64,000 bases of DNA from Candidatus Omnitrophota bacterium (GCA_903901225.1 CAIUQE010000034.1:17391-81390), one strand, 5' to 3'; shown: positions 13,899 to 25,886, counted from the first letter of the stretch. The notes: generated by a model not told the origin, from the sequence alone. Program-made: numbers and translations.

Positions 13899-14599
13899 CG
13901 TCCGACCAGGGAATAAAAATGTTCAGGGACCGGCGCATTGAACGTCATGCGTTCCTTTGTTTTGGGATGCGGGAAAGAGATCGCGTAGGAGTGCAGTGCA
14001 AGAAAAGGATACTTGGCGCCAGGCCTTCCATACTTCGTATCACCGACGAGCGGATGCCCGTGATGCGCCATGTGGACACGGATCTGGTTCTTGCGCCCGG
14101 TCAGAAGGTCAATTTCAAGCAGGCTGTATCTGTCCGTCGCCTTGATAACTTTATACGCCGTGCGAGCGAGCTTGCCGTCTTCCGCTTCTTCCAGGGAATG
14201 CACGCGGTACTTGTCATCCTCGACCAGATAGCTTTCGATCAACCCCTCGGGCTTGGCCAGGCGCCCGTGCACGACGGCATAATATGTTTTTTTGGTATCA
14301 GGCCAGTTGTTCTTGAGGGTCTGCTGGATCGTTTCACTCTTCGCAAAAATGAGCACACCTGACGTTTCCCGGTCCAGCCGGTGCACGACGTAAACACAAC
14401 GGTGCGAACGGGAATTGCCCTTGCGCACGTAAAGATTAAGAAGCTGGTGAACGGTCCGCTCACGCTCATACATCGCGGCGACGGTGAGAAGGCCAGCCGC
14501 CTTGTTGCCAACGATGATGTCATCGTCATCATAAAGAATGTGAAAACCTTTGGGCTGATGCTTTCCCGAGACAGGTTTATTGGTATGCCGCGCCATCAT
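13889..14599 (-). CDS. RluA-family pseudouridine synthase
   Basis: HRLDRETSGVLIFAKS catalytic motif. Its start overlaps the stop of giant gene 1. Confidence 0.8.
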   Translation of the reverse strand: MMARHTNKPVSGKHQPKGFHILYDDDDIIVGNKAAGLLTVAAMYERERTVHQLLNLYVRKGNSRSHRCVYVVHRLDRETSGVLIFAKSETIQQTLKNNWPDTKKTYYAVVHGRLAKPEGLIESYLVEDDKYRVHSLEEAEDGKLARTAYKVIKATDRYSLLEIDLLTGRKNQIRVHMAHHGHPLVGDTKYGRPGAKYPFLALHSYAISFPHPKTKERMTFNAPVPEHFYSLVGRWA

Positions 14600-17500
14600 T
14601 TTCCTTCCATTACCGCCGCTCCGGCGCCGTTGAACAAAGGCAGCCCCGCCGCCGGACGTATGTTCAAAATAACCGGCACCAGGCCGTCGATGTGGATATT
14701 GTCCAGGTCCTGCTGGGCTACCGGCAAAGGCACCCCGGCGCCGTCGCGCTTGATCTGCATGTCGAGATTGGAGGCGGCGAAATCGATACCGCCTGGCTGA
14801 ACAACTTTCTCTGCCATGTCAGAAGACTCTGAATTTGATCCAGTTACTTTGCGTTTCGATGTTGTCGCGGCCTGATCAGGAAACCGGCTTATATCCTCTA
14901 TCGGTCGTTCCGATTTAATTAAAAGCCAGTCGTCTCCCCTGAATGATATCCCATCAATCCCATAAATGTAAGCCACAACATCAATCAAATAAGGTGCCAA
15001 ATGCCATAAATTATGATCAAATTCATCGTTATCAAAAACTTTAAACATCTCATTGCGAATTAAAGATACGGAACTATCAGACACGACATCCCCATCAAAT
15101 GAAATCTTGACCCAGGAATCTGATTCCTGTAAAAATTTTAACAATGCCCTGTTCCCATTATTAACAAAAGTCCAAATGGATCTTCCATTAAAATAAGATT
15201 CCGCCTTACCCCACGAAAATCCATCACGACAAATATGCTCGACATCTTCGGGCGATTGAGTAACTCGCTTATGATTAACCTCATGGAACAATTCAAGAAT
15301 TTTTCTTTCTCTACCAGAATAATACGATCCCATCTCCAGGACAAACTTTGCCAGCTTCCTGCTTTGAATTAACGCCTGCCGTAGCGTTCTTTGAGAACCT
15401 TCTTTTAACGGATCATCCAGTGTAGGAAAAACATACGGCATTTCAGCGATAGCTCGACCCAACAATCCCGGCATCAGCTCCATACCAACAGAATTGAACA
15501 ATGTAAAATTGTTATTCTGCGTATCATTCCGCAACCAAACCTCTTCTCCTCCCGGGGCAACAAAGCGCAGATTGAGCTCAATCTGAGCGAAGGCTGATGG
15601 AGGGGTAAATCTTGCTTCCAGAATATAATTACCATCCCCGTCACGCTCATCCGTGGCCGTCAATGCCAACGGCAGATCGCTCTCGGGTGCAGACCAGTCA
15701 TGATAACTGATGCCAACCTCGTCAATATCAAAATGGCTAAAACGGACAAAACCTTTTATGGCCCTAAGATACCTGTCGAGTCGCTCGCGGGACATCTGTT
15801 TGTCATTCAGCGCCATGGCGAACCTGAGGGCAACCTGCCCCTGTTTGTCGACAACGACCTCGGATCCACTCGGCTGCTGGATATGCCCGGCCCAGACTAA
15901 CTTCACCCCAGATAGATCACCCGCCGCATCTGTTACGGCCTGGCTTTGATCCGGAACATTCTTTTTCAATTCAGCCACACGATATTCAAGATATTCCGGC
16001 AACGTCATGGAAACCGCGGGAAAATCAATGTGCTCATATTTTTTGCGCAATGTTAATCCCATTTTCATTTGAGCCACCAGCGACATCGCGTCCCCCATCG
16101 ACGCCGCGCCCCGCCCGAAAGGGTTCGCCTGAAAGAACCACCATTCATATTCGGCAAGCGCCGACAACCGATTATCCATCCTCAACGCATCATCCATGAT
16201 CCGATCCCATAATTGAGTCAAGTGTTCCATAATAGCAGGGATATCCGTATCGTTAGCGTTATAAAGCAGGATCGCGTCTCCCTGGTCATCCATCTTCTGC
16301 ACATACATTACGCCCGTCGACCCGATCTCCTGCTCATGAGAATAACGCCTGAAATCAGATTCAGTGTACGATTTCACAAACCCGGGATGGCTTAACCGCT
16401 GGTGCAGCATTTTATACAGATCGCCATACCTGTTAGAACCCCGGATGCGCGTGGCCGGAATAAGATCATCTGGCAACCCCAGGAACCTTGTTTGAGAATC
16501 GATACGAAGATCCTCGGCCACCCTGCCTTCACTCGGACGCACGCCCGTTTCAGCCGCCGTCAACCGCGCCTGAAAAACTGAATGCAATATCCTTATATGC
16601 CTTTGTTCGGGCCTTTTGAACAAAGAAACGACCATGGCGGCCATGATCTTGCCGAAACGGTAATTAGTATCAAATCCGGAATTTTTAGGGGCACTCATGA
16701 TCTTGCGGACCTTCCTCTCCAGAAGATCATAATATTGGAACTCAGGAACAGCTACAGCCCCAAGCCCTTCGAAACCACGCCATGTTCTTATGCCAACATC
16801 CTGCGCCAGGTCCTTCGTCGCCGCAGCCTGGCCGGACCAGTTCATCCCGTTTGCCGGCTCTAGATCCGGAACATTCTTTTTCAGTTCAGCTACGCGATAT
16901 TCAAGATATTCCGGCAACGTCATGGATAACGCGCGGAAATCAAGGTTCTCGTAACCAACACGTATCGATAACCCCATCTTCAGCTGGGCCACCATCGACA
17001 TCGCGTCTCCCAAAGCCGCCCCGCCCCTCCCGAAAGGATTCGCCTGGAAGAACCACCATTCATATTCAGGGAGCACTGACAAACGACGGTCCATACCCAG
17101 CGTGGCATCCATCATCGTATCCCATAGTTCAGTCAAATGCCGCATAATGACAGGAACATCCGGATCTCTGGCGCTATAGATCCGGATCGACGTGCCAAAA
17201 GAATCAATGATCTGTTGATACATCCCGCCCGTTGATCCAATTTTCTGGTCACGGAAATATCGTACGCCATTGGTAATATAATGATTTTCTGAAAATCCTT
17301 TTTCCAGCAGTCGTTGATGTACCATTTGATACAATTTTTGATACCTTCCGGAATTCCGAACAGAGATGTATGGCGTACCGTCGATCCATTCTAAAGTCAA
17401 ACCTGAAAGTCTTGCCTCTGAAACATTACGAAAAACTCCCACAACTGTATAGTCATCAATACTCAGCTGTTCAGAAGCCACTGACAGGCGTGCCTTAACC

Positions 17501-25200: not shown

Positions 25201-25886
25201 GCTGTGTAATCCACATCCAACATCACCTTGAGCCGCGATTCAACCACATACGCCACGGCTTCTTCCGGAGATTTTTTACCTGCCACCTTCGGCTTCTCGT
25301 AAACCACGGCTTTCGCGGGAACGATCCAGACCTTGTTGAAAGTATCCACCGGGATGTCCGTTGTCCCGAATTTCTCCCTGGCCTGTTTGTAGATCTCGGC
25401 CCAGAATTTCTTTCCCAGGCCCTGCTCGGGATACATCAGGCTTGAGGTGATCTGCTTCAAGAGATAATCCTGCGCCAGAAGGTCACGGCCCATTTCCGTG
25501 CGGCCAAAGGCTTCGGGCACGATACGGTCCTTCTCATACGGGGATAAATTGACCCACAGCTCTTTCGCGGGAACGGTCAACGCGGCGAGGAAATATTTGA
25601 CCAAGCGTGACGATTCTTCTTGTAGAGACGTTGCGTGCAACGTCTCTCCCTCATCACCCTTATCCAAAATAAAATCAAAACGGAAGGGATCTTTGGCGTA
25701 AACCTTGACCCCGGTGAAAATAGGCGGATGGAACGCAGGGCTCAGCGCCACCAGCCCCACCGGCGGGGGCATAAGAACCTGGGCATACGATGGCGGCAGG
25801 AACGTATTCACCAGAAACACCGCCAGGATTATTGATGAGACCCATGAACGCATAGGCTTCCTGTATTCAACCCGGATACCTGACAT
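22260..25886 (-). CDS. giant-family secreted protein, paralog 3 (1208 aa), with an embedded HAD-like hydrolase domain
   Basis: Signal peptide ending SYA|Q. N-terminal domain at aa 45-380. HAD motifs VFDLADTLY ... GVGKPDP ... GGSLEKEVNAARAAG at aa ~665-850. A Rossmann/methyltransferase-like stretch (ILFVGVGRGLEA...FDLVVLGYVV). C-terminal GGIDLNPVD...FDPAALEKYRGAAGIAPVILSIRPVNDLAGFLGAY. Confidence 0.8.
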   Translation of the reverse strand: MSGIRVEYRKPMRSWVSSIILAVFLVNTFLPPSYAQVLMPPPVGLVALSPAFHPPIFTGVKVYAKDPFRFDFILDKGDEGETLHATSLQEESSRLVKYFLAALTVPAKELWVNLSPYEKDRIVPEAFGRTEMGRDLLAQDYLLKQITSSLMYPEQGLGKKFWAEIYKQAREKFGTTDIPVDTFNKVWIVPAKAVVYEKPKVAGKKSPEEAVAYVVESRLKVMLDVDYTASMRADIPARGTDARSAPTTENDHAMGVGADFMSARGEMPRQILRQIIIPVLEKEINEGKNFAQLRQVYNSLILATWYKKKVMGALKDSPLGFYVGQNKVQGVNIDDPKEAEKIWSRYVEAFQKGAYNFIREELDPATHETVPRKYFAGGVQIVPDLEMTDHLDAAALTPKDAFLVEVQGDGIPVEKEQGDHAEGFKNGLKADVLLGRSPVWAIFREMNKGNDIPVFDIEQDSTSSERLQSEILRRTKDLHDDEFVGLDLVINDPQKDWTHYLTIVGRVGEIKRGSIFTRQFDQIDIGEQEFVHYCIVDRRNRNVHLKRFSLGKGAGNDVLRDQGLMKPVFVYREELFRQNFPRWGISVVTKDDKIKFFMSKFNARPASDEVFRDFVDRGYEPMILPVEGFGFSTKDFFLLGSIPESTTRVLLQDDMKFKPRGVKPVKALVFDLADTLYASELVKKLKVEALVRFCLMNKEGVVEKDVRDKYAQLDSLSGVVGAYGLDMVAFNKVIDDLDIGSVGLEPNDALVALLKNLRRSYYLVLASNASDAHVQQVLQALGLAESFDRVYTQGSMGVGKPDPRFFDHIVNALGFPPEAVVSIGGSLEKEVNAARAAGLKAIHVDGVDDLMDNIVAGIEKINADMAQMLPAEKTPYKEEEYISRSFGALNYRYNGQLTRTISSSIVSKFVKDRKWVAPVPVKILFVGVGRGLEAIEAQRKFGRFVDVYAVNKEDGLFYDKESFLGSGGPVGVFNRKSFEKAFEHVKNNLRIVDLDNEMPVFDAKFDLVVLGYVVTPYFKDPVGIFNTLLEDYCRKDGNLLTFLTDRIQLRNYVSEDNGSADASRYWSDRQLENNKRKLDKFFREFSKRRQNVNVHFNFDGSDVEWVKIRKNGQYRIPLKFLGATRDAKINVPKYYSFYSEENLMQVAADGGIDLNPVDHVMTVGTSEGSGFFHFDPAALEKYRGAAGIAPVILSIRPVNDLAGFLGAY

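Follow-up and report, generated by a model that had tools for sequence, protein, structure and literature searches.

A phylum-wide family of Omnitrophota proteins with constant N- and C-terminal modules and exchangeable cargo

Cargo proteins of the type IX secretion system (T9SS) lack a conserved N-terminal domain and carry a C-terminal domain (CTD), a beta-sandwich of 70–100 amino acids (aa) that has its own Pfam/TIGRFAM models. RTX adhesins possess an N-terminal retention module, GGxGxD nonapeptide repeats and a C-terminal secretion signal; their genes adjoin those of a type I secretion system (T1SS), and they have no Sec signal. In polymorphic toxin systems the variable toxin forms the very C-terminal end of the protein, with an immunity gene coming next; in two-partner secretion (TPS) the TpsA protein contains a TPS domain and has a TpsB partner. 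Here we compare with these systems a protein family encoded in a stretch of 64,000 nucleotides (nt) from Candidatus Omnitrophota bacterium (GCA_903901225.1 CAIUQE010000034.1:17391-81390), called the window hereafter. Four genes of the window, p1 to p4, encode proteins in which the same N-terminal domain (N domain) and C-terminal module (C module) enclose unrelated cargo. The Omnitrophota are widespread, uncultured, ultra-small bacteria thought to be epibionts or predators.

A first-pass annotation of the window had described three co-oriented, near-contiguous open reading frames (ORFs) and a fourth, more distant one, for giant paralogous secreted proteins. Their coordinates, the gaps of 89 nt (p3–p2) and 15 nt (p2–p1) and the 4-nt overlap of p1 with a pseudouridine synthase gene (13889–14599) were all correct, according to an ORF check and, for the pseudouridine synthase, to Pfam. 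The term giant is relative, as lengths of 822–2475 aa are close to the family median of 1162 aa. The features of the four genes are the following, in window positions, with all signal peptides being putative.

14596–19686, minus strand: p1, 1696 aa from GTG; signal peptide, N domain, three AvrB/Fic-like repeats, a region of ~390 aa without assignment, C module
19606–19686, minus strand: p1 signal peptide, aa 1–27; basic n-region, hydrophobic core and GLA↓Q motif, read off the sequence
18661–19605, minus strand: p1 N domain, aa 28–342, with the C-terminal end RKYFSGG
15955–18534, minus strand: p1 cargo, three repeats of ~280 aa, each with EYEWWFFQANPFGRG; Pfam AvrB_AvrC match
14599–14793, minus strand: p1 C module, aa 1632–1696; its first 146 nt form the conversion tract with p2
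19702–22170, minus strand: p2, 822 aa; signal peptide, N domain, cargo with hydrophobic segments and three DxAM motifs, C module
22096–22170, minus strand: p2 signal peptide
21154–22095, minus strand: p2 N domain, aa 26–339
20887–20970, minus strand: p2 transmembrane-like hydrophobic segment, aa 401–428, Kyte-Doolittle 19-residue mean 2.14
19705–19863, minus strand: p2 C module, aa 770–822
22260–25886, minus strand: p3, 1208 aa; signal peptide, N domain, unassigned region, HAD hydrolase, methyltransferase-like region, C module
25782–25886, minus strand: p3 signal peptide
24753–25781, minus strand: p3 N domain, aa 36–378, with a longer variable insert that holds DHAM
23352–23894, minus strand: p3 HAD-type hydrolase cargo, aa 665–845; PF00702
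22263–22439, minus strand: p3 C module, aa 1150–1208, FDP subtype
49272–56699, minus strand: p4, 2475 aa from GTG; signal peptide, N domain, ~540 unassigned aa, seven repeats, C module
55572–56582, minus strand: p4 N domain, aa 40–376; query of the homology searches and of the first structure model
49890–53945, minus strand: p4 cargo, seven repeats of ~187 aa centred on DRY[AE][RQ]
49275–49469, minus strand: p4 C module, aa 2411–2475, FDP subtype

Public gene calls place the start of p1 at an ATG at 19680 (1694 aa) and that of p4 at 56666 (2464 aa). Judged by the spacing, co-transcription of p3, p2 and p1 is plausible, but a promoter-like site is present within the p3–p2 gap. The same window proteins recur on 14–27 independent public contigs. 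The shared ends are therefore not an assembly artefact, a possibility that the first-pass annotation had itself raised.

The N domains are ~315–340 aa long. In the four-protein alignment, which spans ~340 residues, p1 shares 47–63% identity with the others and some 130 columns are invariant. All the conserved blocks quoted earlier are present: WVNLSPYEKDRI.P..FG.T.MGRDLLAQDY.LKQ, LGKKFW, FNKVWI.P.KAV, EKE.NEG..FA.LRQVY and PRKYF.GG. The C module begins with GGID[FL] at 53–65 aa before the stop in all four proteins. It exists in two subtypes, FDP in p3/p4 and NLDMQIKRDGAGVPLP in p1/p2, so that the earlier description of this module holds for all four proteins except for its FDP element, which is limited to the p3/p4 subtype. 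An invariant GG closes the N domain, and another opens the C module. Invariant Ser, Lys, Asp and Glu residues are found in the N domain, which contains no invariant His or Cys. When the six-frame translation of the window was searched with a hidden Markov model (HMM) of either module, only p1–p4 were matched (E 1e-26 to 1e-190; next best E >0.5). In BLASTP comparisons among p1–p4 only the N regions align, plus the C-terminal ends for p1/p2 and for p3/p4. This result, together with Pfam and motif alignment, agrees with the earlier view that the middles are unrelated (275-aa triple repeats, HAD, DRYAR repeats, an internal transmembrane segment). All four proteins start with what appear to be type I (Sec) signal peptides, in which a basic n-region and a hydrophobic core precede the putative cleavage motifs GLA↓Q, GLA↓Q, SYA↓Q and AYA↓Q (p1–p4). 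The AxA↓Q pattern is also found in 25/25 family representatives inspected. The family can be recognised by a signature consisting of the signal peptide, an N domain ending in [KR]KYF[SA]GG and a C-terminal GGI[DN] module; it fits all four proteins and 117 of 143 representatives.

What is seen in these four genes is a local view of a phylum-wide family of roughly 8,000 clusters. An exhaustive HMMER search with the p4 N domain against 1.84 billion cluster representatives (clusters at 50% identity) gave 7,926 clusters at E≤1e-3 and 5,970 at E≤1e-30. A word-indexed search with the same domain retrieved 1,375 proteins; the named ones are all "hypothetical protein" of Candidatus Omnitrophota/Omnitrophica, and none of these has a Pfam domain on the N region. 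Among the 150 matches listed, whose lengths range from 441 to 2991 aa, the N domain starts in every case within the first ~90 residues (mostly 10–60), directly after the signal peptide. A scan of GTDB, with one genome per species, yielded at least 558 loci, and the locus-level counts given here refer to the best 80 of these. All 80 are located in Omnitrophota metagenome-assembled genomes (MAGs) or in MAGs from binning pipelines with the generic label "Planctomycetales". The family is thus specific to the Omnitrophota, very large and without prior annotation. Up to 7 of the best 80 loci come from a single MAG. Since 17/80 loci hold 2–4 copies within 10 kb, tandem arrays such as p3-p2-p1 are common. 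The first-pass annotation had proposed looking for the N domain with variable cargo in related genomes, and it does recur in this way (143 representatives, 80 GTDB loci). As for viral contigs, only 3 family matches were found among 2.9 million (IMG/VR L082–L084; 50% identity to the p4 N domain), and a phage or mobile-element origin was dismissed on this ground. The three contigs are probably provirus host flanks or misclassified contigs.

The N domain and the C module are tightly coupled. The C module of the 117 representatives mentioned above is located within 46 aa of the C-terminus. Among the N-domain ORFs that are complete at their 3' end, 62/80 have an HMM-detected C module, about 10 more show divergent C tails by eye, and 4/80 are split genes in which the next ORF carries the C module. 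Overall, about 82–95% of complete members end in a C module. In the split genes (L078 2412-7232, L003 9881-12855, L060 9869-13689 and L025 7988-10960) both ORFs are on the same strand, and in L078 a single in-frame stop separates the N-domain ORF from the C-module ORF. They could represent frameshifts or pseudogenes, sequencing errors or recoding. Conversely, C-only ORFs are in 7/7 cases cut by the locus edge or adjoin a split gene, and practically no C module occurs in the absence of an N domain. A word-indexed search with the C module alone returned 22 short fragments, usable for HMM building and not for establishing distribution. A minimal member, P0008, has 438 aa and consists of a signal peptide, the N domain, a 15-residue linker and the C module. 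In a sample of 168 non-identical proteins with both modules, which also served for the cargo comparison, the pairwise identities of N and C correlate with a Spearman coefficient of 0.556, the maximum over 500 permutations being 0.148.

Neither module gave a match in Pfam, NCBIfam (N domains at E≤0.1) or a PDB sequence search, in line with the first-pass annotation, which could not match the N-terminal domain to a family, and no solved structure has a comparable fold. AlphaFold2 modelled the p4 N domain alone with a predicted local distance difference test (pLDDT) score of 75.8 and a predicted template modelling (pTM) score of 0.68. For the minimal protein P0008 the values were 78.8 and 0.80, with a pLDDT of 82–90 for the C module, which has little regular secondary structure in the model. 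These models suggest that the C module packs onto the N domain to give one co-folded unit. The obligatory coupling, the co-variation and the pTM of 0.80 versus 0.68 all argue that N and C act as one unit, probably of a previously unseen fold. They also argue against the separate roles once proposed for the two modules, namely targeting for N and anchoring or export for C.

The cargo presents a very different picture. Across 39 representatives it includes S-adenosylmethionine (SAM)-dependent methyltransferases, PPDK_N, HATPase_c, SNF2 helicase and aldo-keto reductase domains, as well as GDSL lipase, PP2C, ATP-grasp, ARMT1-like phosphatase and TPR arrays. For 230 pairs the N domains share 80% identity or more, yet the cargo of just 6 of these pairs could be aligned across half its length or more. 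The two ends are passed on jointly while the middle gets replaced. Transmembrane segments are absent from the cargo of 154/168 proteins. In the window, p2 shows, besides the segment listed above, a weaker second hydrophobic one (aa 545–564), and no recognisable domain was found with Pfam in the cargo of p2 or p4. Motif-anchored alignment places the seven DRYAR-centred repeats of p4 (~187 aa) at spacings of 185–227 aa.

By the same alignment method, the three ~280-aa repeats of p1 have spacings of 275 and 305 aa. This cargo belongs at the Pfam level to AvrB_AvrC (PF05394; 81 bits versus a cut-off of 23.2, in three stretches), although each repeat covers only profile positions ~218–278 of 326 (about 60–80 positions). 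It does not belong to the XopAH/AvrB subfamily NF041403 of NCBIfam, for which the score of 79.2 bits is under the cut-off of 220. In the phmmer alignment with AvrB itself, which covers the first p1 repeat, this repeat matches AvrB residues 199–277 and has an Arg at the position of the arginine of the AvrB "QRGS" motif. The GRG motif that holds this Arg is present in all three repeats. A 111-aa fragment on a 75-kb contig (P0126) shows an AvrB-like repeat tail (…YEHLDFRALSMTLPEY…) followed almost directly by the C module. Since this tail nearly abuts the C module, p1-type cargo exists elsewhere in a shorter arrangement.

The p3 cargo is a member of the HAD superfamily, with a full-length profile match to PF00702 at aa 665–838 (60.7 bits versus a cut-off of 26.4). 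Its motif I reads FDLADT (window 23885–23902, region of aa 662–667): the Asp nucleophile is kept, and the Asp two residues further on is replaced by Ala. The residue at this second position is usually the general acid/base Asp of HAD enzymes. The p3 domain may thus have an altered chemistry or be inactive. The methyltransferase-like region of p3 has no Pfam match.

Taken together, we favour, with a probability of roughly 0.5, the reading that N and C together serve as a handle for the export, retention or delivery of swappable effector-like cargo, which is recombined between co-inherited ends. The proteins would be carried over the inner membrane by Sec, with removal of the AxA↓Q signal peptide. 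The N and C modules would then fold together into one scaffold, with the cargo inserted between its two halves. This scaffold is 50–70% identical across the top-ranked cluster representatives and the GTDB loci retrieved. Because it is far more conserved than the cargo, it probably contacts a conserved self component of the envelope, for example a translocon of the outer membrane or an anchor in the periplasm or at the surface. In this way it would serve as a shared handle for export, retention or delivery. The cargo, of cytoplasmic type and effector-like, would act outside the producer's cytoplasm. Its targets would plausibly be host or prey cells, given that it is nucleotide- or SAM-dependent or effector-like and given the epibiotic or predatory lifestyle proposed for the bacteria. 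A host-dependent or predatory way of life has been proposed for Omnitrophota (PMC10066038; bioRxiv 10.1101/2023.11.21.568195). Finally, the conserved 5' and 3' gene ends could act as homology arms, one route by which cargo cassettes might be exchanged.

Several points weigh against this handle. ATP- or SAM-dependent cargo is odd in an exported protein unless it reaches the cytoplasm of another cell. No cognate transporter was found near the family genes, in the 64-kb window or at the 80 loci, and the context of these genes in the window is housekeeping. Export, location and function were deduced from sequence, and the signal peptides were recognised by reading the sequence. The docking of C onto N is taken from the model confidence scores. 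The co-variation of N and C could stem from co-inheritance alone. Some database proteins are N-only (347–353 aa), which is a misfit with an obligatory two-piece fold unless they correspond to split or truncated genes. In a more specific version, which we advance tentatively, the new N+C fold would be the recognition or anchoring element of an undescribed, Omnitrophota-specific export or display pathway, analogous to the T9SS CTD, that delivers hundreds of enzyme cargoes to the surface or to host or prey, with DxAM motifs for processing or docking and the gene ends as recombination arms.

The same conservation and co-variation of the modules could also be expected of a surface lattice, in which N+C is not an export tag but the self-assembling subunit of a coat or sheath that displays the cargo, with head-to-tail or lateral N–C contacts formed between molecules. 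The many paralogues per genome, the existence of N-only and of minimal N+C proteins and the lack of a dedicated transporter gene nearby would suit such a coat. However, the pTM of 0.80 for a monomer with a confidently modelled C module fits an intramolecular contact. Moreover, surface-layer proteins with a structural role tend to be few in number and strongly expressed, rather than present as thousands of cargo variants. We regard a lattice as unlikely.

The export, retention or delivery handle is also to be viewed in the light of two observations on DNA and motif level. Over 146 nt, from the GGID codons to the RPA codons, the C-module DNA of p1 (14649–14793) is 94% identical to that of p2 (19719–19863). 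The flanks of this tract are unalignable on both sides, and the N-domain DNA of p1 and p2 is only 70–72% identical, which indicates a recent gene conversion confined to the C module. The second observation concerns a short motif, DxAM, located between the N and C modules. In the 168 proteins it was observed 239 times versus 19.2 +/- 4.1 expected by shuffling, a 12-fold enrichment. No enrichment was seen in 713 neighbouring non-family ORFs (23 versus 23.3). The occurrences are found mainly near the modules, with 102/239 within 40 residues after the N domain and 44/239 within 40 residues before the C module, and 89/168 members have one within 60 aa of the N domain. In the window, DxAM is present in p1 at 346, p2 at 399, 537 and 658, p3 at 251 and p4 at 382. 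It could be a processing or docking site.

If DxAM is a processing site, the proteins could be polyproteins that are cut at the DxAM linkers and/or at the GG boundaries (YFSGG / GGID), the N domain being an intramolecular chaperone or protease or a pro-domain and the free cargo being released to the periplasm or the medium. In favour of this are the family-specific enrichment of the motif at module boundaries, the invariant GG that closes the N domain and the one that opens the C module, and the invariant Ser, Lys, Asp and Glu of the N domain. Proteolytic processing was suggested for other Omnitrophota giants by West-Roberts et al. (bioRxiv 10.1101/2023.11.21.568195). Nevertheless, the N domain has no similarity to proteases by sequence or fold, and neither His nor Cys is invariant in it. 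DxAM might just as well serve in docking or as a linker, and it occurs close to the N domain in only about half of the members (the 89/168 given above). We find such processing improbable.

The genomic neighbourhood was analysed for partners of the putative handle. The first-pass annotation had suggested searching for a cognate transporter or immunity genes; no transporter was found in the 64-kb window or at the 80 loci, and no immunity-like gene in the window. A Pfam scan of 50 neighbouring ORFs in the window revealed no secretion apparatus, T1SS, Omp85/TpsB or immunity-like gene. The neighbours of p1–p3 encode the pseudouridine synthase, a methyltransferase, EamA, a spermidine-synthase-like protein and complex-I-like subunits, and those of p4 encode RNase II, PPK2, a GGDEF-EAL protein (directly after p4) and menaquinone proteins. 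None of the window neighbours is syntenic at other family loci. When 823 ORFs from the 80 loci were clustered, no neighbour family was conserved above 8/80 loci, and the best one, in 8/80, was a generic response regulator. The recurring neighbours are all generic: response regulator-EAL, a TPR membrane protein, a KdpD-like kinase, a glycosyltransferase and ABC-F.

Housekeeping neighbours, a Sec signal and the lack of a secretion system nearby are what would be expected of periplasmic or membrane-tethered housekeeping enzymes, in which N+C binds lipid, lipopolysaccharide or peptidoglycan and which have no role towards other cells. Yet SNF2 helicase, HATPase, ATP-grasp and methyltransferase cargo would have no obvious substrate or cofactor supply in the periplasm, and such an extreme turnover of cargo is atypical of housekeeping functions. 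There is little probability, in our opinion, that the family consists of such enzymes.

Some other genes of the window deserve mention. Upstream of p3-p2-p1, a TamB-like protein of 448 aa (26508–27854, minus strand; Pfam TamB, E 6e-20) is encoded by the sole envelope-assembly-type gene of the window scan. It is much shorter than E. coli TamB, and a TamB-like gene is a neighbour in 1/80 loci. Between this gene and p3, and divergent from p3, lies a type II toxin-antitoxin pair (25960–26410, plus strand), in which the gene for a putative antitoxin of 66 aa (25960–26160) overlaps that for a ParE-family toxin (~26150–26410; Pfam ParE_toxin, E 1.4e-11). At 25897–25924 there is a promoter-like site close to the consensus (TTGACA-16-TATACT with TG). 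An ORF of 134 aa on the minus strand (25918–26322) is probably a shadow of the ParE pair. At 2435–2887 and 3366–3818 (minus strand) are genes for a YhaV-type endonuclease toxin (E 2.8e-26) and for a small DSP-PTPase (PF22785, E 1.5e-8), which is of a type recorded among polymorphic toxin systems; the DSP-PTPase is named first in the coordinate order given. They adjoin a WYL/HTH regulator gene (3802–5151) and may form with it a defence or toxin-antitoxin islet unrelated to the N+C family. Also unlinked to this family is a protein of 653 aa (41607–43568, minus strand) that combines SH3b with an NlpC/P60 cell-wall peptidase and might have a bearing on a wall-degrading lifestyle. Searches of the window for tRNA genes and Rfam features gave no match.

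The proposal that the proteins form a modular secreted effector or adhesin system is partly supported, namely in its modularity and Sec-type export, whereas its polymorphic-toxin flavour is not, nor are the separate roles for N and C discussed above. The variable part is central, with a conserved module at the C-terminus of p1–p4 and of the 117/143 representatives where a toxin would be expected. Directly downstream of the genes no immunity gene is found (p1 is followed by the pseudouridine synthase gene, p4 by the GGDEF-EAL gene), there are no immunity-type small ORFs between them, and the cargo is made of enzymes and repeats (methyltransferases, HAD, PP2C, SNF2, TPR). The N domains contain no Haemagg_act TPS domain (Pfam/NCBIfam, E≤0.1) and no NPNL/NPNGI motifs in the alignment, and the Pfam scan of the window detected no TpsB, both as noted at first. 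Thus, despite the modular build with conserved ends and variable content and the resemblance of the p1 cargo to the type III effector AvrB, an established polymorphic toxin, contact-dependent inhibition or TPS system is very improbable and is largely refuted by these tests, since there is no TPS, RHS, LXG or other known trafficking domain, the C-terminus is constant, gaps of 15 and 89 nt and a pseudouridine synthase as the next gene leave no room for immunity genes, no Omp85/TpsB gene exists in the 64 kb, and the cargo belongs mostly to non-toxin enzyme families.

With its about 8,000 clusters, one shared two-piece scaffold and constantly exchanged effector-like cargo, the family is a strong candidate for the main interaction toolkit of the Omnitrophota. 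This role would suggest that secretion or display takes a route that has so far gone undescribed. Database curators could also build two new domain models, one for each module, and handles for experiments are available in the form of the 438-aa minimal member, the DxAM motif for processing and the signature for metaproteome mining.

In comparison with known systems, the family shares with the T9SS cargo of Bacteroidota a Sec signal, dozens of paralogues that are scattered over the genome and have no transporter gene beside them, diverse functional domains and a C-terminal tag that stays constant. It differs by a C module of ~55 aa without a match to CTD models (no Por secretion-tail match in Pfam or NCBIfam), by its obligatory 320-aa N domain and by the phylum. 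Autotransporters have a C-terminal beta-barrel of ~250–300 aa that is not found here, the C module being 53–65 aa long and the proteins giving no Pfam autotransporter match. Like giant RTX adhesins (LapA / MpIBP), the proteins have conserved ends, which serve export and retention in the adhesins, and a variable middle. Unlike them, they start with signal-peptide-like, Sec-type N-termini and have no GGxGxD repeats, no HemolysinCabind match and no adjacent type I secretion genes, with no T1SS gene in the window. With polymorphic toxins and TpsA-TpsB they have in common a conserved trafficking part, exchangeable content and recombination-driven diversification, whereas the defining features of those systems, all tested, are absent from the window family.

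Within the same phylum, the "Archaeovorin" giants (West-Roberts et al. 2023, bioRxiv 10.1101/2023.11.21.568195) are likewise predicted to be exported or membrane-associated, and a role towards prey or host was proposed for them. Their domains overlap with the cargo reported here (methyltransferases, HAD_2, PPDK_N, HATPase_c, TPR/HEAT). Unlike the N+C family, they exceed 30,000 aa, have many transmembrane helices and SecA-like domains, and adjoin a locus resembling type II secretion systems and type IV pili (T2SS/T4P). The N domain and the C module are not described in the passages on termini, signal peptide and secretion of that preprint (including its section 7) or of 10.64898/2026.06.07.730766, and in Seymour et al. 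2023 (PMC10066038) no passage on N-/C-terminal, signal peptide or secretion features matched. As for individual cargo, each p1 repeat matches the AvrB_AvrC core, as do the AvrB/XopAH type III effectors with their Fic-like fold. In contrast to these effectors, the p1 domain is triplicated, lies inside a putatively Sec-exported protein, matches the profile only partially and is not accompanied by a type III secretion system. Altogether, the N and C domains and their predicted fold are new, while the general principle, in which export or anchor modules stay the same and the cargo varies, is already known.

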